In this document: piece by piece, positions 4,095 through 21,036 of the stretch | Numbering within the stretch: the first letter of the stretch is position 1 | How the letters are laid out: every line of letters starts with the position of its first letter | Virus record (IMG/VR): IMGVR_UViG_2563366928_000010 | From: a virus | Taxonomy: Duplodnaviria; Heunggongvirae; Uroviricota; Caudoviricetes | Reading direction: 5' to 3' (one strand) | DNA length: 21,036 nt | The notes under the pieces: generated by a model | What the model was told of the DNA's origin: nothing | What the model saw: the letters and a program-made list of their open reading frames with translations, nothing else | The model's database searches: none | Program-made: the position numbers and the translations under genes

Positions 4095-4171
4095 TGGACC
4101 GCCATCGAGGACTCGAACCCCGCGCAGCCAGCTTCGAAGGCTGGCGCTCTATCCCGATGAGCTAATGGCGG
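4095..4171 (-). tRNA. tRNA-Arg (anticodon UCG)
   Basis: 77 nt cloverleaf CCGCCAT..GCTC/GAGC D-stem..anticodon stem CCAGC/GCTGG with loop CTTCGAA..T-loop TTCGAGT..ATGGCGG-T-CCA, folded by hand. Confidence 0.75.
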
Positions 4172-4180
4172 TATGTGATA

Positions 4181-4256
4181 TGGTGGCCCTTGCTGGATTT
4201 GAACCAGCGACCTGGCGATTATGAGTCGCTCGCTCTCACCACTGAGCTAAAGGGCC
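4181..4256 (-). tRNA. tRNA with CAU anticodon, ileX/ileZ-like (tRNA-Ile2 lysidine type; would score as tRNA-Met in automated tools)
   Basis: GGCCCTTTAGCTCAGTGGTGAGAGCGAGCGACTCATAATCGCCAGGTCGCTGGTTCAAATCCAGCAAGGGCCACCA; closer to recalled E. coli ileX than to elongator tRNA-Met. Confidence 0.8.
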
Positions 4257-4570: not shown

Positions 4571-5074
4571 TTATTGATAGTGTTTTATGTTCAGATAATG
4601 CCCGATGACTTTGTCATGCAGCTCCACCGATTTTGAGAACGACAGCAACTTCCGTCCCAGCCGTGCCAGGTGCTGCCTCAGATTCAGGTTATGCCGCTCA
4701 ATTCGCTGCGTATATCGCTTGCTGATTACGTGCAGCTTTCCCTTCAGGCGGGATTCATACAGCGGCCAGCCATCCGTCATCCATATCACCACGTCAAAGG
4801 GTGACAGCAGGCTCATAAGACGCCCCAGCGTCGCCATAGTGCGTTCACCGAATACGTGCGCAACAACCGTCTTCCGGAGACTGTCATACGCGTAAAACAG
4901 CCAGCGCTGGCGCGATTTAGCCCCGACATAGCCCCACTGTTCGTCCATTTCCGCGCAGACGATGACGTCACTGCCCGGCTGTATGCGCGAGGTTACCGAC
5001 TGCGGCCTGAGTTTTTTAAGTGACGTAAAATCGTGTTGAGGCCAACGCCCATAATGCGGGCAGTTGCCCGGCAT
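4571..5074 (-). CDS. insB: IS1 transposase InsB (expressed as InsAB' by frameshift)
   Basis: 167 aa ORF overlapping insA 3' end in the -1 frame, as in IS1. Confidence 0.85.
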
Positions 5075-5268
5075 CCAACGCCATTCATGGCCATATCAAT
5101 GATTTTCTGGTGCGTACCGGGTTGAGAAGCGGTGTAAGTGAACTGCAGTTGCCATGTTTTACGGCAGTGAGAGCAGAGATAGCGCTGATGTCCGGCGGTG
5201 CTTTTGCCGTTACGCACCACCCCGTCAGTAGCTGAACAGGAGGGACAGCTGATAGAAACAGAAGCCAC
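4993..5268 (-). CDS. insA: IS1 transposase InsA
   Basis: 91 aa [43 protein letters not shown]... Zn-finger InsA. Confidence 0.9.
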
Positions 5269-5861: not shown

Positions 5862-6944
5862 ATGAAAAAATTAACAGTGGCAATTTCTGCTGTAGCTGCA
5901 TCAGTACTGATGGCGATGTCTGCTCAGGCAGCTGAAATTTATAATAAAGACAGTAACAAGCTGGATCTATACGGGAAAGTTAATGCCAAGCACTACTTCT
6001 CCTCTAATGATGCAGATGATGGTGATACTACTTATGCTCGTCTTGGCTTCAAAGGTGAAACCCAAATCAACGATCAACTGACTGGTTTCGGTCAGTGGGA
6101 ATATGACTTCAAAGGCAACCGTGCTGAATCTCAAGGTTCTTCCAAAGACAAAACCCGTCTTGCATTTGCAGGCCTGAAATTTGGTGATTACGGCTCAATC
6201 GATTACGGTCGTAACTACGGTGTAGCATACGACATCGGTGCGTGGACTGACGTTCTGCCAGAATTCGGTGGTGATACCTGGACCCAGACAGATGTGTTCA
6301 TGACTGGCCGCACTACTGGTGTTGCAACTTATCGTAACAACGACTTCTTTGGTCTGGTCGATGGCCTGAACTTTGCTGCTCAGTATCAGGGTAAAAATGA
6401 CCGCACTGACGTAACTGAAGCCAATGGTGATGGTTTCGGTTTCTCCACTACTTATGAGTATGAAGGATTCGGCGTGGGTGCAACCTATGCTAAATCAGAT
6501 CGCACTGACGGTCAGGTCGCCTATGGTAAGAGCAAATTCAATGCCTCCGGCAAAAATGCGGAAGTATGGGCTGCAGGCCTGAAATATGATGCGAACAATA
6601 TCTATCTGGCTACCACATATTCTGAAACTCAGAATATGACCGTTTTTGGTAATAACCATATTGCAAACAAAGCACAAAACTTTGAAGCAGTAGCACAATA
6701 TCAGTTTGACTTCGGTCTGCGCCCATCTGTTGCTTACCTTCAGTCAAAAGGTAAAGACCTTGGTGTTCATGGTGACCGAGACTTAGTCAAGTATGTCGAT
6801 GTCGGTGCTACTTACTACTTTAATAAAAACATGTCCACTTTTGTTGATTACAAAATCAACTTAATTGACGATAGTAAGTTTACCAAAACAGCTGGTATTG
6901 ATACCGACGACATCGTCGCTGTAGGTCTGGTTTATCAGTTCTAA
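5862..6944 (+). CDS. nmpC: Outer-membrane general porin, NmpC/Lc/OmpC family (phage-borne)
   Basis: ATG at 5862 with AAGGG SD; signal peptide [23 protein letters not shown]; [16 protein letters not shown]... and C-terminal ...VGLVYQF beta-barrel terminus; matches recalled NmpC/Lc porins. Confidence 0.85.
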
Positions 6945-7132: not shown

Positions 7133-7516
7133 TCAATTAGAATTATTAGCAACGATATCCATATCTAACCGGATATCTAATGCCATTAACATCCCTTCAA
7201 TTATGCCCTCAGCCTTCTGTAACCTTTTCCCGATATAACCATCCGAGCAGCAATGCTTACTTGCCAGTGACATGAATGTCATACCACATACATAATAATC
7301 TACTAATAAATCGTGTAAATCGCTGTTGTTCTTTTTCAGACGGGCCATGCACCCGCAAATGATCATCGCGTCATCGTCACAACATTGCGGGCGAGATTTT
7401 ACTTTTGAAGGAATTAATCCCTTAAAACCGGCAGCAATGGACGACCAGGTCACATCCTCATGATTATTTGCCGCCCATGCGCCCCAGCGTTCAAGAACCA
7501 TCTGAATATCACGCAT
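7133..7516 (-). CDS. Q: Late-gene antiterminator Q (phage 82 / DLP12 QuuD type)
   Basis: 127 aa from ATG at 7516: [60 protein letters not shown]... with Cys-rich Zn-binding region; matches recalled DLP12 YbcQ/QuuD. Confidence 0.8.
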
Positions 7517-8373
7517 TATTCGCACTCACCAACCAGATTGAGAATGACCGCTGCACCGTCGTCTTCCATGCATTCACCCTTACCACTTGCCAGAAACCAG
7601 CGGCACACCTCCACGGCTTCAGCGCGTGTCACCGGTTTGATGGTTGCCAGCAATTTTTCAAGGTAGCGCTCGCGGTCATATACCGATTCGTGATGCTCAG
7701 AGTAACCAAACTCATCGCCCTGTTCTTTAGTTGCAGTGTGGCGAACACTGTAGAGCCAGTCCCAGTAAACGAACTCGCGAACAACATCAGACAGCGTATA
7801 AGGCTCAGGCAGCACATCGCGATATCCATCAACAAATGCCCGACGCTGTTCATCAATTTCGTTCATGCGGCTGCCGCCAATGCTTCCGGCTTTTTTCTCT
7901 GCCGCAGTCCAGCCCCAGAGATGATCGTTGATAAATTTCTGGGAAGACCTGATGACCCGCTCTGCTTCCACATCTTCGAGCGCTGCTTCATAGCTACCAA
8001 ACGTAGCCCTGACTGATGCCGCTTTTTTGATGTTCTCCCGGGCGTTCCTGATAACCTGCGCAGGGTTATCCATGCCGATGATGCCGAACGCAACTTGGAA
8101 AGGTTCGTAACCATTCGCCAGCAGATAACGCGAATAGCGTTCCTGAGCCTCTTTTGGGGAAATTTTAATTTTCACCAGCGCAGCCTCAGCAGCATCCAGA
8201 TGTGCGGGTTCGTTCAGACGGATAACCTCCAGCACCCAAAGATAAGCATCAGTCTGCTTATGCCCGGTGATTCTCCGTTGCTCTGGCAGGGGCTTGATGT
8301 TTGCGAGGGCGGAGCTGTACGCTGCCGTCGGGATGGTGAATAGTGCTTTATGTTCGTTATTATCAGTACGCAT
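7516..8373 (-). CDS. Hypothetical phage protein, 285 aa, translationally coupled between primase and Q
   Basis: ATG at 8373 overlaps primase stop; stop overlaps Q start (TAATG); no family recognised by eye. Confidence 0.6.
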
Positions 8374-13128: not shown

Positions 13129-13224
13129 TCAGACACAAAAAGAAACCAAAGTATCAAAAATCACTTGCCACACCTTGATACCTTAGTTACCATGAAACAA
13201 AGTTCGTAACTGAGGTATCATCTC
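13129..13224. promoter_or_regulatory. OL-like operator region downstream of repressor gene
   Basis: Same 12-mer CCAAAGTATCAA as in the OR region (13146-13157 vs 12414-12425), inverted copy TTGATACC 13175-13182, GGTATCAT 13214-13221. Confidence 0.45.
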
Positions 13225-13641
13225 ATGATCAATAAAGCTACAACTCTTGACTGTCTCGAAGAACTGAAAAACCTCGGCAGCCTCATTACACTAATAGCAA
13301 AAGCAACACCAGATGCTACGCTCTCTAGCGATATAGAGTCATGCGCAGGACTGGCATGGGATATGACAAATAGCATATCCAGAAAGCTATCGTCAGCAAT
13401 GCTTTTACAGAACAAAAATTCTGCAATCAACAACCGTCTTCGCACCCAACGCGAAGACTGCGGCTTAACAACAGCCGAACTCGCCAGACTGCTCGATCTC
13501 GATGAAGAAATTATCATCCAGTGGGAGAGCGGAGAGTACGAACCAACCATCAGCATGCTTATCCCTCTGGCTAATGTTCTTGGCTGTGATCCAATGTGGT
13601 TACTGACTGGTGCTTATAAACAAAATCAGGAGGAAGCATAA
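13225..13641 (+). CDS. HTH_XRE-domain protein (138 aa) with novel N-terminal half
   Basis: GAGGT SD 8 nt upstream; C-terminal RLRTQREDCGLTTAELARLLDLDEEIIIQWESGEYEPTISMLIPLANVLGCDPMWLLTG is a Cro/CI-type HTH. Confidence 0.7.
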   Translation: MINKATTLDCLEELKNLGSLITLIAKATPDATLSSDIESCAGLAWDMTNSISRKLSSAMLLQNKNSAINNRLRTQREDCGLTTAELARLLDLDEEIIIQWESGEYEPTISMLIPLANVLGCDPMWLLTGAYKQNQEEA

Positions 13642-13642
13642 G

Positions 13643-13834
13643 ATGAAAATGTTCAAAGGCCTCACCAACGAACCGGAAACAGCTTTTCATCACATTGCCG
13701 TACTGCTTGAAGCGGGGTTAATCATTTCGGCTTCCGGTGATGAAGAATGTGATGAACTTTCGGATGATATCTTTTTACTGGCACAACAATACGCCAGAAG
13801 CGCATGCGATGCATTTAAGGAGCAAAGAACATGA
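13643..13834 (+). CDS. Small acidic hypothetical protein (63 aa)
   Basis: ATG 2 nt after upstream stop with AGGAGGAAG SD; acidic patch SGDEECDELSDD. Confidence 0.55.
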   Translation: MKMFKGLTNEPETAFHHIAVLLEAGLIISASGDEECDELSDDIFLLAQQYARSACDAFKEQRT

Positions 13835-14022
13835 TAACTCCATTAAATATTCTTGAGGAAGTGGCAGCACAAATAAAAGAGAATACATCCATGCTTGAAT
13901 TTATATTTAAGAATTCGCCTGATTCAGGAGAGACAGACGATTATTTATGTTGCCTCATTCGCTCCATGAATAAAACCTGTGAAATGGCTTACGCGTATAT
14001 CGACACACTGCGCAACGAATAA
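13831..14022 (+). CDS. Small acidic hypothetical protein (63 aa)
   Basis: ATGA start/stop overlap with upstream gene, AAGGAG SD 7 nt upstream. Confidence 0.55.
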   Translation: MITPLNILEEVAAQIKENTSMLEFIFKNSPDSGETDDYLCCLIRSMNKTCEMAYAYIDTLRNE

Positions 14023-14206
14023 AGAAAACTCAATAAACAATCACCCATAAAAACATAACGGTCTCTGGTCGGGAATTTCCACAACCTGAAAATGGTGGTG
14101 ATGCATGAAAAACAGAAGTGCTTATAAAACCGCATTATTAATGGCTAATGCAGGATACTGGTCAGTTGCAATACTGTTTCTCAGGAAAGCATACGGGAAA
14201 TAACAA

Positions 14207-14566
14207 ATGACACATGAACCCATTAATACATATCGTCGCCGTATAGCTGTTGCGGCACTCCATCGAATAAAACGTAAAACAGGTGGTAATCTGCTTATTG
14301 TTGACCTTCCGGATGGGAACATTACGACCATAGAAATAACTGAACAGTTTATAAACCAGTTGCTGTTACGCTTCGAAGGTATTACCCGTGGTGAATTGGG
14401 CCGGGTGGAGGGTGAAACCGAAATCCACACTGCATACCAGAATGCTATCGGGATTAATCAACATACTGAATACCTGACTGAAACCGGAAAGTTAATTATA
14501 GACAACCTTTTTCAAGAGGTTATTGATTACGCGAAAGAAAAATATATCAGCGGAGGAATTAACTGA
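14207..14566 (+). CDS. Hypothetical protein (119 aa)
   Basis: ORF with coupled downstream gene; weak SD; no family recognised. Confidence 0.5.
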   Translation: MTHEPINTYRRRIAVAALHRIKRKTGGNLLIVDLPDGNITTIEITEQFINQLLLRFEGITRGELGRVEGETEIHTAYQNAIGINQHTEYLTETGKLIIDNLFQEVIDYAKEKYISGGIN

Positions 14567-14781
14567 TGGCTAATTTATCCCCTGTATCTGTTGTGCACGA
14601 AAAAGTGCAGATCGTTATGACAATTGAAAATGGCCAAGTCACAGGTGTCTGCAAAGTCCGCGATGGCGAGCTGATTGCCAGCATGGATACATTCATACGG
14701 CTGGCAGAAAGAGCGGGGTATCAGATAACAGCACCTGCTCAGGAGGAAACCGGTGGCATTAACAGCAACACGCATTCCTGA
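14566..14781 (+). CDS. Hypothetical protein (71 aa)
   Basis: ATGA overlap with upstream stop; GGAGGAA SD 7 nt upstream. Confidence 0.55.
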   Translation: MANLSPVSVVHEKVQIVMTIENGQVTGVCKVRDGELIASMDTFIRLAERAGYQITAPAQEETGGINSNTHS

Positions 14782-14967
14782 GCGGATCCACCGGCAGGCA
14801 TTGCAGGTCCTGTTGTTGTACCGATGCCGACGGATATTTCCGCATCGGATACAGCGCACCGGATATCTCAGTCTGAAGGTTAACCGTCGCTGGCGGCTGT
14901 TATCGAAAGACGACGGCCGGAACTGGGAAGTAATGAGTCATGAACGTTATTCGGGAGAAATAAAGAA

Positions 14968-15360
14968 ATGATCGACAACCGCACCGCCAGCGCCATTGAC
15001 CAGGCATTACAGAAACATGATACACCCGTCGGCCCGTTATTTTTTGTAACACGCCACGGAAGAACAAAAAAATGCCTCAGCCGAAAAACGGCAATTCGTT
15101 ACCTGGCATTCTTTATGACCACCCGCGCTTTTGAACGTTCAGGATTCCGACAACGCTATCCTGACAAGCGTTTTATCTTCAACAGGAATGAGATATGGAA
15201 ACGTGGAGAATCAACCACAGAGTATACCCGCGCACACCAGCGAACAATCAGACGACTGCGCAGACTCATCGCCAGGAAACAGTATACAGAAAAATGGTTC
15301 AGAAAATATGACACATGGAGCGCCGGATATTACGAACTGATGGCAACAAAACCATTCTGA
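14968..15360 (+). CDS. Hypothetical basic protein (130 aa)
   Basis: GGGAGA SD 9 nt upstream; Arg/Lys-rich C-terminal region (RTIRRLRRLIARKQYTEKWFRKY). Confidence 0.55.
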   Translation: MIDNRTASAIDQALQKHDTPVGPLFFVTRHGRTKKCLSRKTAIRYLAFFMTTRAFERSGFRQRYPDKRFIFNRNEIWKRGESTTEYTRAHQRTIRRLRRLIARKQYTEKWFRKYDTWSAGYYELMATKPF

Positions 15361-15420
15361 CGTAAACGAAATTAACCATGACGCAATTAAATAAGGCAAG
15401 CCGAATACATCAGGAGGACC

Positions 15421-15609
15421 ATGAACATTTATTTCAGAATAGTTATATCACTGGCAATTATCACATGTATTTACGGATTAATCGTTCCGGCCCTCATATC
15501 AATGAAGGATACGGTAGCAGTGATTTCTGGCTTTGCTCTGGCGTGTCTGACCCCGCCCTGCATTTATGCCATTTATAAGGGTCTTTCTTTTTCTAAGGAT
15601 AAAAGATGA
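15421..15609 (+). CDS. Small membrane protein with two predicted TM helices (62 aa)
   Basis: AGGAGG SD; hydrophobic segments RIVISLAIITCIYGLIVPALI and AVISGFALACLTPPCIYAIY; stop overlaps start of downstream SPFH gene (ATGA). Confidence 0.55.
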   Translation: MNIYFRIVISLAIITCIYGLIVPALISMKDTVAVISGFALACLTPPCIYAIYKGLSFSKDKR

Positions 15610-16433
15610 AAAAATTACTTTTTGCTTTAGCCCTTGTTCTGCCGACCATTGGCCTTGTCGGTTGCGATCGCGTTGAGCCTGGTAATGTGGGCATCAAAGT
15701 AAACAAACTGGGCGACGATAAAGGCGTCGGTGAAGTGGTCGGTGTTGGGCGCTACTGGACGGGATGGAACACTGAGGTTTACATCTTCCCGACCTTTAAG
15801 CAGATGAAGACCTACGATGATCCATTCAGTTTCCAGATGAGTGACGGTACAACCATCGGCTATCACATCGGCGTGGCCTACAAAGTTGATCCATCCAAAG
15901 TTACCACAGTCTTTCAGACCTACCGCAAAGGCGTGGACGACATTACCGACACCGACCTGCGCCAGAAGATAGCCGACGCACTCAACCGACTGGCCAGCAA
16001 AATGACCACCGACAAATTTATCGACGGCGGCAAGTCTGAGCTGCTGGATGCAGCTCTTAAAGACATTCAGGAAGAAATGACGCCCATCGGTATTCAGGTA
16101 ATGAGCCTCTCATATGTGGGTAAGCCGGAGTACCCGCCTACTGTTATCGACAGCATTAATGCCAAAGTCACGGCGAACCAGAAAACCCTGCAACGCGAGC
16201 AGGAAGTAAAACAGCGCGAAGCGGAAGCCAACATGTTGCGCGCGGAAGCTGCCGGACAGGCAGATGTGATTCGCACAAAAGCCCAGGCCGAAGCCGATGC
16301 TATTCGTTTACGCGGTGAAGCTCTGCGCCAGAACCCCGGTGTTATGGAGCTGGAAGCCATCAACAAGTGGAACGGTACACTGCCGCAATACATGACCAGC
16401 GGTGCCAACACACCATTTATTCAGGTTAAGTAA
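15606..16433 (+). CDS. SPFH/Band-7 (HflK/C, stomatin-like) domain lipoprotein, 275 aa
   Basis: AAGGA SD; lipoprotein signal MKKLLFALALVLPTIGLVGC with Asp at +2; SPFH core and Ala/Glu/Arg-rich coiled-coil tail QREQEVKQREAEANMLRAEAAGQADVIRTKAQAEADAIRLRGEAL. Confidence 0.8.
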   Translation: MKKLLFALALVLPTIGLVGCDRVEPGNVGIKVNKLGDDKGVGEVVGVGRYWTGWNTEVYIFPTFKQMKTYDDPFSFQMSDGTTIGYHIGVAYKVDPSKVTTVFQTYRKGVDDITDTDLRQKIADALNRLASKMTTDKFIDGGKSELLDAALKDIQEEMTPIGIQVMSLSYVGKPEYPPTVIDSINAKVTANQKTLQREQEVKQREAEANMLRAEAAGQADVIRTKAQAEADAIRLRGEALRQNPGVMELEAINKWNGTLPQYMTSGANTPFIQVK

Positions 16434-16476
16434 TACATATGCCCGGTATTACACGCCGGGCTGTCTGGAGATAAAA

Positions 16477-17226
16477 ATGAATATTGTAACCATCAACAAC
16501 AAACAGTTTCCGGTAATCGAATATCGCGGTCAGCGTGTTGTGACATTTGCAATAATTGATGACGTCCACCAGCGCCCGGAAGGTACCGCCCGTGCTGCGT
16601 TTAACCGCAACCGTTCTCACTTTATCGAAGGGGTGGATTTTCTTGAAATGACTGCGGACGTAATACGTACGGAGTCACTTTCTGATGCCTTTGCCGCGCG
16701 AACTGCCAAAGGGATCATTCTTTTCGAGTCTGGTTACCTGATGTTGACGAAGCCTTTTAACGATGCTCTTGCATGGCAGGTTCAGCGCGAACTGGTTAAC
16801 AGCTATTTCCGAACTCACGCGCCGCTGACGGAAATGGAGATGATCGCTGCAATGGCCGCCGATGCCGTTCGCCAGCAGAAGCGCCTGAGTCATGTTGAAG
16901 AGAAGATCGAAACGGTCACCAAAGCTGTGGAGAACATCAAACGCGGCACAATGCGCACCGGATATGTCGGTTACCGCCAGGTGGTAGCCAAAAGCGGAAT
17001 GAGTGACGCCAAGTGTCGGAATCTGGTCAACGCCTACCACATCCCTACCGACACGCACGAATTTATGACTCCGGACGGTCTGTTGTCTCGCAGGGCTGTC
17101 GTCGAGCTTGAGACATTTATGGCGGCGTTCCACCAAATGATGTCAGAGGCTGAACCACGCGGCACACGCTGGTATCACCCGAAGATGGGGCTTTTCCAGG
17201 TAATCGGATGGGAGGATAAAGCATGA
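16477..17226 (+). CDS. ORF6N-domain-like protein (putative antirepressor/DNA-binding regulator), 249 aa
   Basis: GGAGAT SD + ATG 16477; N-terminus PVIEYRGQRVVTF...NRNRSHFIEGVDFLEMT...LFESGYLMLTKPFNDALAWQVQRELVNSYFR resembles recalled ORF6N consensus. Confidence 0.6.
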   Translation: MNIVTINNKQFPVIEYRGQRVVTFAIIDDVHQRPEGTARAAFNRNRSHFIEGVDFLEMTADVIRTESLSDAFAARTAKGIILFESGYLMLTKPFNDALAWQVQRELVNSYFRTHAPLTEMEMIAAMAADAVRQQKRLSHVEEKIETVTKAVENIKRGTMRTGYVGYRQVVAKSGMSDAKCRNLVNAYHIPTDTHEFMTPDGLLSRRAVVELETFMAAFHQMMSEAEPRGTRWYHPKMGLFQVIGWEDKA

Positions 17227-17792
17227 TCATCCAGTCAAAACTTATTCGCGCCGCTCTGGTGTGCGCTGCTAAAAACGACGTTCGTTATTACCTGAACGGT
17301 CTTCACATCACGCCAAAACATATTGAGGCAACCAATGGTTTCGTAGCACTGCGCATGACTCACGGCATCCGGACGAAGAAAAACATCATTGTCCAGTTCG
17401 AAGGTGGCGTCCCGGCCAAAGCCGAAACGACAGAGCTGATTTTAAGTAAAGAGCCGATCGCTGTTCATCGCGACCAGTTTCAGCGCCGGCTGTCCATTAC
17501 CGGCATTAAATTAGTGGACGGTTGTTTTCCGGATTTGGAACGCATCATTTCGAAAAAATTTGACCTCTGTACACACCCGGTGATCCAGGCGGGTTACCTG
17601 AGTTATCCAGAGAAGATGTTTGGTCGTGAGCGTAAATTTATTCCCGTCCAGTTACGTCCCTCCGGTGACGGGCAAGCGGTCAGAATTCAGTTTGATTCCA
17701 TCATCAACTCAATGTATGGCAATCCTGAATTTGTTGTGATGCCTTGTCGTGATCATGGCGATTTCAACGTGGCTCAGGAGCATCCGGAATGA
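17223..17792 (+). CDS. Truncated DNA polymerase III beta sliding-clamp (DnaN)-like protein, 189 aa
   Basis: Strong SD GGAGGA 6 nt upstream; DVRYYLNGLHI...ATNGFVALRM, KLVDGCFPD and C-terminal FVVMPCR align to recalled E. coli DnaN (DVRYYLNGMLFE...ATDGHRLAV, KLVDGRFPDY, YVVMPMRL). Confidence 0.7.
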   Translation: MIIQSKLIRAALVCAAKNDVRYYLNGLHITPKHIEATNGFVALRMTHGIRTKKNIIVQFEGGVPAKAETTELILSKEPIAVHRDQFQRRLSITGIKLVDGCFPDLERIISKKFDLCTHPVIQAGYLSYPEKMFGRERKFIPVQLRPSGDGQAVRIQFDSIINSMYGNPEFVVMPCRDHGDFNVAQEHPE

Positions 17793-18022
17793 AAATCGAA
17801 TACCAGGACTACGGAGCCGTAGCGAACATCGTGATCACCTGCACCGTGTTCGAATTTCGTAAACATAACCGGGTGGTGGATGCTGCATTGCTTTGCACGC
17901 CGGACGTTATTGCAACTCACAGTGGTGTGTTTTTCATGAAGTCGGTTTTATCCGGTAAAACCCGCGATATGTTGCGGGCATATAAAACAGCACAGGGAGA
18001 GGTCGGGCGTGAGCGAGATTGA
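17789..18022 (+). CDS. Hypothetical protein (77 aa)
   Basis: ATGA overlap with upstream stop; no family recognised. Confidence 0.5.
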   Translation: MKIEYQDYGAVANIVITCTVFEFRKHNRVVDAALLCTPDVIATHSGVFFMKSVLSGKTRDMLRAYKTAQGEVGRERD

Positions 18023-18374
18023 TTATCAGGCACTGCGTGAGGCAGCAGTAGCAATTGAAACAGTGGCAACGCCTCAAAAATTGCAGGCGTTTCGGATGAA
18101 GGTCACACCGTCGGTGGTACTGGCGCTGCTGGATGAAATTAAGCGCCTGGAGGACACAAATATTGATGCTATGTGCCGAATTGCAGAACTGGAAGCGAGG
18201 GAAGTCGAGTTACCGGACGGCTACGAACCCCGTATGGGCCACCCAATAAATAGCGGTGAGCGGGTGGTAATGATGCCGCACCACTTTGGTGGATGGCTGG
18301 ACCGCTTCGACGTCGAGCACGCATTGCAGGCAGCGGGGATCAAATTCAAAACAGCGGGGGTTGAGTACGAATGA
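18009..18374 (+). CDS. Ead/Ea22-like early protein (121 aa), GTG start
   Basis: N-terminus MSEIDYQALREAAVAIE resembles recalled lambdoid Ea22/Ead N-termini (MSEINSQALREAAE...); GGGAGAGG SD. Confidence 0.5.
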   Translation: MSEIDYQALREAAVAIETVATPQKLQAFRMKVTPSVVLALLDEIKRLEDTNIDAMCRIAELEAREVELPDGYEPRMGHPINSGERVVMMPHHFGGWLDRFDVEHALQAAGIKFKTAGVEYE

Positions 18375-18604
18375 TTGAGGGTATTAGCAATAAATCGTTG
18401 AACACAGCATGTGTCGACGGTGGGTTGTTGTACAAAGTGACGTTTACGCAAATCGACAACGAAGATAACGCATTCACTGTGATTTACACGTCGCCAGCGA
18501 TGGCGCAGAAGTGGGTGGATCTGCACAGGCTATGTGGTTTTCGTGTTGAGTGGGGGTGTTATGAGATGCGATGCAGATGGCATCATCGGGGGGATGAAAA
18601 ATGA
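18371..18604 (+). CDS. Hypothetical protein (77 aa)
   Basis: ATGA overlap with upstream stop; Cys/His/Trp-rich C-terminus. Confidence 0.5.
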   Translation: MIEGISNKSLNTACVDGGLLYKVTFTQIDNEDNAFTVIYTSPAMAQKWVDLHRLCGFRVEWGCYEMRCRWHHRGDEK

Positions 18605-18978
18605 GCACTACGCTTGAGCAATGGCTGGAACAGCAGCACGGCAAAATTGATGTTGATTGCGGCTGTGTGAGCACTGAAACGCTTATGCACTGGATGCGTG
18701 TGGCGTATGAGGCTGGCAACTCTCCGGTAACTCCGGATAGTTGGATAAGCTGTAGTGAGCGAATGCCAGAAATGGGAGAGCGACAATGCTATGTGTTAGC
18801 TGCTGACTTTAAAAACAACTACCTACCAAGCATCCCCAACACTCAGGTCGGCGTATATGGCGACTGGTTTAATGATGGCAAGCCCACTTGGGATGACGGT
18901 GGTGGCGAAGACCTGTATCTCAAGGAGGTAACCCACTGGATGCCGCTGCCAGAACCGCCGCAGGAGGTGAATCAATGA
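18601..18978 (+). CDS. DUF551-like phage protein (125 aa)
   Basis: ATGA overlap; motifs WISCSERMPE and EVTHWMPLPEPP typical of DUF551 as recalled. Confidence 0.6.
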   Translation: MSTTLEQWLEQQHGKIDVDCGCVSTETLMHWMRVAYEAGNSPVTPDSWISCSERMPEMGERQCYVLAADFKNNYLPSIPNTQVGVYGDWFNDGKPTWDDGGGEDLYLKEVTHWMPLPEPPQEVNQ

Positions 18979-19058
18979 GCTGGCGTGATGCAATCGTAAC
19001 TCTGGGGGTGGTATTCGCAGCAGCGTTTGTTGTGTTCTCGATTTGTCGATGGGGATAA
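18975..19058 (+). CDS. Candidate 27 aa hydrophobic micropeptide
   Basis: Strong SD AGGAGGTGA 18962-18970, ATG 18975 overlapping upstream stop (ATGA); MSWRDAIVTLGVVFAAAFVVFSICRWG; below the ORF-track length cutoff. Confidence 0.35.
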   Translation: MSWRDAIVTLGVVFAAAFVVFSICRWG

Positions 19059-19062
19059 CCAC

Positions 19063-19305
19063 ATGTTCGCTTTGATTCAACGCGGGCAGATATACACCGA
19101 TAGTGCTGGCTACCCGGTAAAAATTACTCGCAGTACTGTTCACTCGGTATTCTTTCGGAGGATGGACGGGCGCTCCGGGCGGGTACGCATCACTGAGTTC
19201 AACAGCCTGTTCGAACATATTGACCACCAGGAGTACCGCAAAATTCTGGCAGAAACAGAGCAGGAAGCTCATCTGAAAAAATTACGAGCCATGAAAAGGA
19301 AGTAA
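19063..19305 (+). CDS. Hypothetical phage protein (80 aa), DUF4222-like
   Basis: Internal ATG of ORF 19027..19305; MFALIQRGQIYTDSAGYPVKITR...; position next to the xis/int module. Confidence 0.45.
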   Translation: MFALIQRGQIYTDSAGYPVKITRSTVHSVFFRRMDGRSGRVRITEFNSLFEHIDHQEYRKILAETEQEAHLKKLRAMKRK

Positions 19306-19308
19306 AGA

Positions 19309-19443
19309 ATGAATAAAGCATTTGAACGATGGGTCCACCAGCGTTACGGCAATCGCTATGATCTGACGCGAGATGTTGACGGTTTCTACTGTCGTGAAGT
19401 TGTGAAGCGAATGTTTGAAATGTGGTGCCACTGCCGTGGATGA
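19309..19443 (+). CDS. Candidate 44 aa Cys-containing small protein
   Basis: ATG 19309 with AAGGAAG upstream; MNKAFERWVHQRYGNRYDLTRDVDGFYCREVVKRMFEMWCHCRG; below ORF-track cutoff. Confidence 0.3.
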   Translation: MNKAFERWVHQRYGNRYDLTRDVDGFYCREVVKRMFEMWCHCRG

Positions 19444-19461
19444 AAGTTTTATGAGGTTGGC

Positions 19462-19716
19462 ATGCAGACAATCATCTATCAGATAACCCCCAGCAAATGG
19501 TGTACGGAGAGAGTCCTTATTGCATCAACAGGGCTAAAGCCCGGCACCATCGAGCGGGCCAGGAGAAAGTCATGGATGCAGGGAAAAGAATACCGCCATT
19601 ACGCTGTAGAAGGTGATCCTGGGCATTACAGTGAATGCCTGTACAACATCGAAGAAATTATGCGATGGATCGAAAACCAGAAACAACCAGGTGCCAAAAA
19701 TGCAAGTTCCGGTTAA
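19462..19716 (+). CDS. Excisionase-like protein (84 aa)
   Basis: Small basic protein immediately upstream of and co-oriented with the integrase; GAGGT SD. Confidence 0.5.
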   Translation: MQTIIYQITPSKWCTERVLIASTGLKPGTIERARRKSWMQGKEYRHYAVEGDPGHYSECLYNIEEIMRWIENQKQPGAKNASSG

Positions 19717-19749
19717 CCTGTTAATGCTCCTGGACGTCTGGGAGGTTTA

Positions 19750-21036
19750 ATGAGTAACGTATCATACCCGACAGGCGTTGAAAACCATGGAGGATCACTC
19801 CGTATATGGTTTCACTATAATGGCAAACGTGTCAGAGAAAACCTCGGTGTTCCTGACACCGCCAAAAACCGGAAGATCGCAGGTGAACTTCGCACTTCCG
19901 TTTGTTTTGCAATCAGAATGGGGAGTTTCGACTACGCCACACAGTTCCCTAATTCCCCTAACCTGAAACACTTTGGTCTGGGAAAAAGAGAGATAACCGT
20001 TAAGGCACTTTCGGAAAAATGGTTGGACCTTAAGAAAATTGAGATTTGTGCGAATGCACTTAATCGTTACCAGTCAGTAATTAAAAACATGTTGCCTATG
20101 TTGGGTGAGAAAAAACTGGTTTCATCCATAACAAAAGAGGATTTACTTTTCGCAAGGAGAGATTTGTTGACCGGTTACCAAAAGCTTTCTAATGGAAAGA
20201 TTTCTTCCATAAAAGGGCGCTCAGTGGTCACAGTAAACTACTATATGACAACCATAGCTGGAATGTTTCAATTTGCAACAGATAATGGTTATACCTCAGG
20301 AAACCCATTTAACGGTCTGGCACCCTTAAAAAAGTCCAAGGTAAAACCAGATCCTCTCACCCGTGACGAATTTATTCGTTTTATTGAGGCTTGCCGTCAT
20401 CAACAAACAAAAAACCTGTGGATTCTCGCTGTATACACGGGTATTCGTCACGGGGAGCTGGTATCGCTGGCATGGGAAGATATAGATCTTAAAGCAAGGA
20501 CTATAACCATCCGTAGGAATTATACAAAACTTGGCGAATTCACTCCACCAAAAACCGATGCTGGCACCGGAAGGACAATTCATCTGGTTCAACCAGCTAT
20601 TGATGCTCTTAAAAGTCAGGCGGAAATGACCATGCTTGGAAAGCAACATTCTGTAGAGGTAAAGCAGAGGGAATATGGGAGAAGTACTGTGCATAAATGC
20701 ACTTTTGTTTTTAGTCCTCAGGTAATAAAACAGCGGCAGTTTTCCGGACCGCACTATAAGGTTGACTCCATCAGGGAGTCATGGACAAGTATCTTAAAAC
20801 GCGCAGGTCTGAGACACAGAAAATCGTACCAATCCAGGCATACTTATGCATGCTGGTCACTTGCCGCTGGAGCTAATCCTAGTTTTATCGCAAGCCAGAT
20901 GGGCCACACAAACGCACAAATGGTATTCAATGTTTACGGAGCATGGATGAAAGACAACAATCACGAACAGATAGAACTCCTTAACAAAAGACTATCTGAA
21001 AGTGTCCCATGTATGCCCCATAAGAAAGTGGGGTAA
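19750..21036 (+). CDS. int: Phage tyrosine integrase (site-specific recombinase), complete
   Basis: GGGAGG SD; N-terminal arm-binding-like YPTGVENHGGSLRIWFHYNGKRVRE; catalytic region RHTYACWSLAAGANPSFIASQMGHTNAQMVFNVYGAW (R..H...Y); stop at window end. Confidence 0.9.
   Translation: MSNVSYPTGVENHGGSLRIWFHYNGKRVRENLGVPDTAKNRKIAGELRTSVCFAIRMGSFDYATQFPNSPNLKHFGLGKREITVKALSEKWLDLKKIEICANALNRYQSVIKNMLPMLGEKKLVSSITKEDLLFARRDLLTGYQKLSNGKISSIKGRSVVTVNYYMTTIAGMFQFATDNGYTSGNPFNGLAPLKKSKVKPDPLTRDEFIRFIEACRHQQTKNLWILAVYTGIRHGELVSLAWEDIDLKARTITIRRNYTKLGEFTPPKTDAGTGRTIHLVQPAIDALKSQAEMTMLGKQHSVEVKQREYGRSTVHKCTFVFSPQVIKQRQFSGPHYKVDSIRESWTSILKRAGLRHRKSYQSRHTYACWSLAAGANPSFIASQMGHTNAQMVFNVYGAWMKDNNHEQIELLNKRLSESVPCMPHKKVG

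Follow-up and report, generated by a model that had tools for sequence, protein, structure and literature searches.

The hydrophobic pocket of E. coli's beta sliding clamp (DnaN) on which polymerases, repair proteins, Hda and RecB, as well as the clamp-loader subunit delta, dock by way of clamp-binding motifs is built by domain II together with the second half of domain III. A shorter form of the clamp, beta*, is said to have been described by Skaliter et al. in 1996 as an internal in-frame product of dnaN that comprises domains II and III and is UV-inducible, and it reportedly oligomerises and stimulates Pol III. The dimer interface of full-length beta brings I78, F106, K74, R96, R103 and R105 of domain I against I272, L273 and E298-E304, which sit in the first half of domain III, and a monomeric beta is unable to hold Pol III in place for processive synthesis (PMC11139829). 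The delta subunit docks its residues L73/F74 into subsite I of the pocket, and its binding to monomeric beta is about 50-fold tighter than its binding to the ring (PMC11139829). The QVEMEF motif of RecB binds the same clamp pocket (PMC13254535). Phage factors that exploit or block the host clamp include Twort Gp168 (PDB 7EVP) and Mu MuC (PMC12867686). Short phage homologs of the polIII-beta protein were recorded by Kazlauskas and Venclovas in 2011 and were assumed to be dispensable for replication (PMC3201878); no functional study of short phage clamps, or of proteins described as 'beta clamp domain' or 'DnaN-like', was found beyond that survey.

The locus described here encodes a protein of this short kind, a 189-aa mini beta-clamp. 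The existence of its family was therefore already known; the new points are an architecture in which domain II is joined to the second half of domain III, the total loss of the dimer interface and a conservation centred on the pocket.

The mini-clamp gene and its neighbours in the prophage

The window (the whole stretch of DNA analysed, 21,036 nucleotides) is a lambdoid E. coli prophage adjoining mlrA, in which the following features were placed at the mini-clamp gene:

16477..17226, + strand: Ant/Bro-N-type gene, the product of which has ORF6N at the N-terminus and phrog_6610 as the C-terminal domain, which ends RWYHPKMGLFQVIGWEDKA; assigned by Pfam and PHROG
17210..17215, + strand: Shine-Dalgarno sequence GGGAGG, 7 nt 5' of the mini-clamp ATG; read directly
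17223..17792, + strand: coding sequence for a mini beta-clamp of 189 aa (beta clamp domain-containing protein, WP_021541932.1-like); open reading frame read from the sequence
17789..18022, + strand: 77-aa gene (phrog_1001) downstream of the mini-clamp gene and translationally coupled to it

The start of the mini-clamp gene lies in an ATGA (17223-17226) shared with the stop of the upstream gene, which is thus also translationally coupled to it, and its stop lies in a second ATGA (17789-17792) shared with the start of the downstream gene. The strong Shine-Dalgarno sequence and downstream coupling named in the original prediction were accordingly both found, and its placement of the gene in the prophage early region was borne out by annotated relatives, where the gene is flanked by a LexA-family repressor and xis/int, beside mlrA, in the leftward early operon. 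As no terminator-like sites were seen on the + strand from about 13200 to 19787, and no good candidate for a promoter-like site was present close to the gene, it was taken to be an internal cistron of a long operon. On the opposite arm of the prophage are the genes of a DEAD-box helicase and a toprim primase, together with that of the antiterminator QuuD. At the nucleotide level the gene was found in 60 of 5426 complete E. coli genomes, and the recent PGAP name for its product is 'beta clamp domain-containing protein'.

Several other features of the prophage were recorded. In the same early-left operon a small membrane protein (phrog_1130) is coupled to an SPFH/Band-7 protein (15421-16433), a pair that could be an exclusion or membrane-remodelling module; the operon also holds a 72-aa ParE-family toxin-like reading frame (14753-14971) that overlaps its neighbours and has no obvious annotated antitoxin. 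On the - strand, between the primase and antiterminator Q, a 285-aa conserved protein (phrog_6204; 7516-8373) has only a sub-threshold, methyltransferase-like Pfam match. Transfer RNA genes, an IS1 insertion and an OmpC-like porin gene are located at 4095-4256, 4571-5268 and 5862-6944; the tRNAs are a tRNA-Arg(TCG) and a tRNA with a CAT anticodon (tRNA-Ile according to PGAP, tRNA-Met according to ARAGORN), and the IS1 insertion truncates a DNA methyltransferase gene.

The upstream Ant-like protein ends, in the window, with the C-terminal tail HPKMGLFQVIGWE. Its C-terminal domain is 50-60% identical in Photorhabdus and Providencia prophages, and the tail RWYHPKMG[LI]FQVIGWE is kept from E. coli to Xenorhabdus despite a swap of the N-terminal DNA-binding domain (ORF6N versus pRha); Ant-like relatives of the gene were also seen at loci L009 (6264-7004) and L011 (3664-4416). 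The clamp-binding motif of Pol II is QLGLF, and the xMGLF core of the tail, being similar to it in sequence, might dock into the mini-clamp or the host clamp. A regular-expression scan for clamp-binding motifs in the prophage proteins gave weak internal matches only. The upstream gene and the downstream gene (71-77 aa) were each present in 13 of 25 loci of the Enterobacterales subfamily and in none of the distant loci. An obligate three-gene cassette was thereby ruled out, and the mini-clamp gene was therefore regarded as an independent module.

Homology, family and domain architecture

All of the DnaN motifs quoted in the original prediction were present in the 189-aa product: DVRYYLNG at aa 19-26, ATNG at aa 36-39, KLVDGCFPD at aa 96-104 and VVMPCR at aa 171-176. 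Searched alone, the protein matched PF02767 with an E-value of 0.004 and 17.8 bits (cut-off 27), with no match to PF00712 or PF02768 in the same Pfam search, and it matched TIGR00663 with an E-value of 0.0015 and 17.5 bits (cut-off 137.65); phmmer against the PDB gave E-values of about 0.03-0.04. A 21-member family profile (A1), by comparison, matched E. coli beta in the PDB with an E-value of 1e-13, a 143-member profile scored 82 bits against E. coli DnaN, and hhalign gave 98.6% probability and an E-value of 1.3e-15. At the sequence level, the similarity to DnaN is thus marginal for the single protein and unambiguous once family profiles are used, and the proposed homology to the central and C-terminal parts of DnaN holds. 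Structure prediction of the protein alone gave a DNA clamp and not an unrelated fold (AF2; pLDDT 89.7, pTM 0.85); the model of a 30%-identical relative had a pLDDT of 96.4 and a pTM of 0.91. Common ancestry with the beta sliding clamp is accompanied by a shared, predicted clamp fold.

A single, isolated truncation was not what was found. An exhaustive profile search of 1.84 billion representatives returned 7114 matches at E<=1e-3, and nearly all of the best 150 of these were 170-210 aa in length; the family comprises at least 150 clusters at 50% identity and was located by tblastn in 255 phage records, the hosts of which include Salmonella, Escherichia, Klebsiella, Vibrio, Acinetobacter and Burkholderia. 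Megablast of the phage collection with the nucleotide sequence of the gene returned nothing, the relatives being found at the protein level. The protein matched PHROG 3007 with an E-value of 7e-64 over aa 1-179, and in BFVD many phage proteins of 180-210 aa had TM-scores of 0.75-0.80 to the mini-clamp model. It therefore belongs to the short phage beta-clamp-domain proteins, which are about 170-210 aa long, encoded by phages or prophages, and homologous to DnaN without domain I. The phage records do not agree in their labels ('DNA polymerase III beta subunit', 'beta clamp domain protein', 'RusA-like Holliday junction resolvase'). The last of these, the label of PHROG 3007, was rejected, there being no RusA Pfam match and the fold being that of a DNA clamp; it has spread from PHROG 3007 to many annotations, e.g. 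NC_025458, NC_054650 and NC_031924.

Genome scans placed the gene in prophages of many Enterobacterales and also of Pseudomonas and others, and rarely on plasmids (12 records). It was found in the early-left operons of lambdoid prophages and, elsewhere, at the end of an early operon. In Escherichia phage TheodorHerzl (Dhillonvirus; L003, 5971-6489) and in Shewanella phage 1/41 (L002, 6001-6549), which are virulent or unrelated phages, it stands alone on the opposite strand as an insert between the capsid/tail and lysis genes, a moron-like placement. The gene occurs in phages that lack a DNA polymerase, but TheodorHerzl has a family-A polymerase of its own, and a restriction of the family to phages without a DNA polymerase was therefore ruled out. 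PADLOC gave no defence-model match for the mini-clamp and four neighbours. One genome of Xenorhabdus hominickii carries five copies (L030, L031, L032, L036 and L037) of two divergent subtypes, with 51% and 40% identity to the query. In the copy of Candidatus Symbiopectobacterium (L017, 4001-4540) codon 4 is an in-frame stop, suggestive of pseudogenisation in the genome of a symbiont.

With regard to its domains, the protein was divided as follows:

17223..17552, + strand: aa 1-110, equivalent of DnaN domain II and the interdomain connector (beta ~132-250); from HMMER and MAFFT alignment to beta 136-250 and DSSP
17553..17750, + strand: aa 111-176, a single beta-alpha-beta-beta-beta half-domain that corresponds to the latter half of DnaN domain III (beta ~313-365); from a C-terminal sub-HMM, MAFFT alignment and the order of secondary structure elements in the models

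Initial HMMER and hhalign placements had assigned the C-terminal half to the first half of domain III, the local aligners running into that segment because clamp domains are internally pseudo-symmetric. This assignment was ruled out with a sub-profile of the C-terminal 80 residues, which scored 28.2 bits on beta 308-366 versus 3.5 bits on beta 248-312, and it was therefore concluded that domain II passes straight into the second half of domain III. The family consensus 'eigfNaeYl...iiMPmR' likewise resembles 'EIGFNVSYV...VVMPMR' of beta. By alignment, beta 1 to ~131 and ~251-312 are absent. The description of the product as half-length was consequently right as to size (189 versus 366 aa) but not as to a contiguous half, since only domain II and the second half of domain III are present.

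In the two independent AF2 models DSSP found just two long helices, one at aa 5-14 and one at aa 123-133; where domain II should have its second channel-lining helix there is a loop (aa 60-68), so that DnaN's two channel-lining helices per domain are not retained. Three complete clamp domains (~366 aa) were not recovered at curated thresholds, and every one of the dimer-interface residues of beta listed above maps, in the alignments, to a segment that the mini-clamp lacks. As the interface segments and an inner helix are missing, and monomeric beta is non-processive, a canonical ring and a processivity function are both very unlikely on architectural grounds; the expectation that the protein cannot be a canonical three-domain ring monomer agrees with the absence of domain I and of the first half of domain III.

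Conservation of the clamp-binding-motif pocket

The residues of pocket subsites I and II were taken as listed in PMC11139829 and were located in the mini-clamp as follows:

17283..17294, + strand: RYYL, aa 21-24, equivalent to beta R152-L155; R21 and L24 belong to subsite I (family conservation 99% and 96%)
17331..17342, + strand: TNGF, aa 37-40, equivalent to beta T172-H175; T37 and G39 belong to subsite I
17520..17546, + strand: GCFPDLERI, aa 100-108, equivalent to beta G239-V247 in the connector; P103 (P242), R107 (R246) and I108 (V247) belong to subsite I
within 17553..17750, + strand: Q122 (N320) and Y125 (Y323), subsite II
17733..17750, + strand: VVMPCR, aa 171-176, equivalent to beta V360-R365, the C-terminal pocket strand (M173 97%, P174 93%, R176 81%)

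Conservation was scored in an alignment of 143 relatives (median 28% identity to the query), drawn from the best 150 of the 7114 profile matches, together with E. coli beta. The values for the pocket equivalents, in beta numbering, were:

R152: 0.99
G174: 0.99
P242: 0.99
M362: 0.97
L155: 0.96
P363: 0.93
T172: 0.91
H175: 0.90
Y323: 0.88
R365: 0.81
N320: 0.70

Pocket residues made up seven of the 10 most conserved columns and 10 of the top 20 (R152, L155, T172, G174, H175, P242, Y323, M362, P363 and R365), an enrichment with a hypergeometric p of 2e-6 to 4e-7 (about 2e-6 for the top 10), part of which is to be expected, since in true clamps, too, no surface is better conserved than the pocket, which also helped to recruit and align the relatives. 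Family-wide, 10 of 18 pocket positions were at least 70% conserved, and a hydrophobic pocket is accordingly retained at the level of sequence. The dN/dS of the gene was 0.07-0.22, indicating purifying selection on a functional gene.

In the protein of the window, subsite I is intact and subsite II is altered (H175 to F40, N320 to Q122 and M364 to C175), and canonical Gln-containing motifs may therefore bind poorly. The first of these changes is at codon 40 (17340-17342), which encodes Phe where 90% of the family has His; its equivalent in beta, His175, bridges the two pocket subsites. Close relatives have F, S, H, C or R at this position, with Ser in the 96%-identical Shigella and E. coli copies, and this variation may reflect specificity tuning.

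Proposed function and comparison with known clamp systems

Of the options raised in the original prediction, a decoy or hijacker of clamp loading is the best fit, because the family conserves the clamp-binding-motif pocket. The mini-clamp is proposed to be a soluble pocket module that cannot form a ring and that acts as a decoy or hijacker by binding clamp-binding motifs or the clamp-loader subunit delta, a reading that we hold to be about equally likely to be right or wrong. The leftward early operon would supply the protein early in lytic growth; while not on DNA, it would bind the clamp-binding motifs of host proteins, and possibly also of a phage protein, and would thereby rival the host clamp, either as a decoy or trap or by recruiting a client. 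Candidate clients are delta, Hda, Pol II/IV/V, MutS/L and RecB. Peptide binding by the pocket, the choice of client and inhibition rather than recruitment are each what we infer. The lambdoid prophage of the window carries only a helicase and a primase for replication, and as such a phage needs host Pol III, a general trap for clamp clients would hurt it; a selective client or a tight dosage would therefore be expected.

A genuine processivity clamp for phage replication, encircling DNA as a non-canonical homo-oligomer (e.g. of four 1.5-domain protomers) or together with host beta, would account for the clear clamp homology and fold, the retained partner pocket and the many records labelled 'DNA polymerase III beta subunit', as well as for those phage contigs in which the gene ends an operon with helicase genes. 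However, with just 1.5 domains the protein lacks both surfaces of the beta-beta interface and one channel-lining helix, no phage clamp loader was seen, and the gene occupies structural or moron-like positions in several phages and occurs in one with a family-A polymerase, so that this explanation is considered very improbable. It was also possible that the gene is a decaying, functionless fragment of a captured dnaN, as scores below the curated DnaN thresholds and the early stop in the Symbiopectobacterium copy might indicate. A length that stays at 170-210 aa in 150 or more clusters (50% identity) and in 255 phage records, the low dN/dS, two compact and confident models, and the strong Shine-Dalgarno sequence with translational coupling all speak against decay, which is effectively refuted by conservation and retains only the slightest probability.

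Two further explanations concern the partner and the surface through which the protein acts. The pocket could serve a pair within the phage, binding either the conserved xMG[LI]F tail of the Ant-like protein encoded upstream or the 77-aa product of the downstream gene, and thereby regulating that partner and not host proteins. This would agree with the ATGA coupling on both sides, with a C-terminal domain and tail of the upstream protein that are kept between E. coli and Xenorhabdus despite the N-terminal swap, and with the resemblance of xMGLF to QLGLF of Pol II; a Gln-less motif would suit the altered Gln-binding subsite II. The explanation is nevertheless judged quite unlikely, since neither neighbour occurs beyond 13 of the 25 close loci or in any distant one, a tail variant (L034) has Ser at the Leu position, the Dhillonvirus and Shewanella phage copies are solitary, and the tail may simply belong to a folded domain. 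Alternatively, another surface could act, for example on DNA, SSB or a defence protein, with the pocket kept for folding only. Conserved positions outside the pocket (D19, G26, P64, G100 and K131) and the finding that monomeric beta still binds DNA (PMC11139829) are consistent with this; the strongest conservation, however, falls on the solvent-exposed equivalents of R152, H175, Y323, M362, P363 and R365, which is unusual for purely structural roles, and a function independent of the pocket is regarded as unlikely.

The broader proposal that phages widely use a soluble, ring-less pocket mimic to titrate proteins with clamp-binding motifs off the host clamp, for instance by trapping delta, Hda, factors of mismatch repair or translesion synthesis, or the motif in RecB by which RecBCD is tied to the clamp, is more tentative, and we lean somewhat against it. 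If true, this would add a new class, based on mimicry of a hub site, to the factors of host takeover or counter-defence. Bacterial replication and repair have their central docking hub in the beta-clamp pocket, which is also an antibiotic target, and a natural, widespread phage protein consisting of the pocket only would represent a new viral route to rewire or disable that hub. The mini-clamp would also serve as a genetically encoded competitor, and as a probe of which clamp clients matter in infection. As regards annotation, these genes encode neither functional 'DNA polymerase III beta subunits' nor 'RusA-like resolvases'.

When compared with DnaN of E. coli (366 aa; PDB 2POL/1MMI; TIGR00663; PF00712+PF02767+PF02768), the 189-aa mini-clamp is without domain I, the first half of domain III and the dimer interface, and has a loop in place of one inner helix; it is a homolog, and not a member, of the functionally defined DnaN clamp family. 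Like the mini-clamp, beta* is said to lack domain I, starting at about residue 135 of DnaN, but it reportedly has a complete domain III, half of which is missing here. Two complete clamp domains per protomer, as in PCNA, T4 gp45 and E. coli beta*, are likewise not present in the mini-clamp.

The protein belongs to the same family as the phage-borne short homologs of PMC3201878 and PHROG 3007, which are about 170-210 aa in length and without domain I; these were described in PMC3201878 as 'the second and third domains', whereas here the third domain is represented by its second half only. The family is large and now carries a sharp, testable hypothesis, its mechanism being what we infer from the retained parts. 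Monomeric beta I272A/L273A, which keeps the pocket and does not close a ring (PMC11139829), is the laboratory analogue of the predicted mini-clamp, although it is an engineered, full-length protein of three domains and the mini-clamp is a natural phage protein of 1.5. Gp168 and MuC have no sequence or fold relationship to the mini-clamp, and all three are phage factors aimed at the clamp interaction hub; Gp168 and MuC, however, bind the host clamp, whereas the mini-clamp imitates the docking site and would bind the clients of the clamp.
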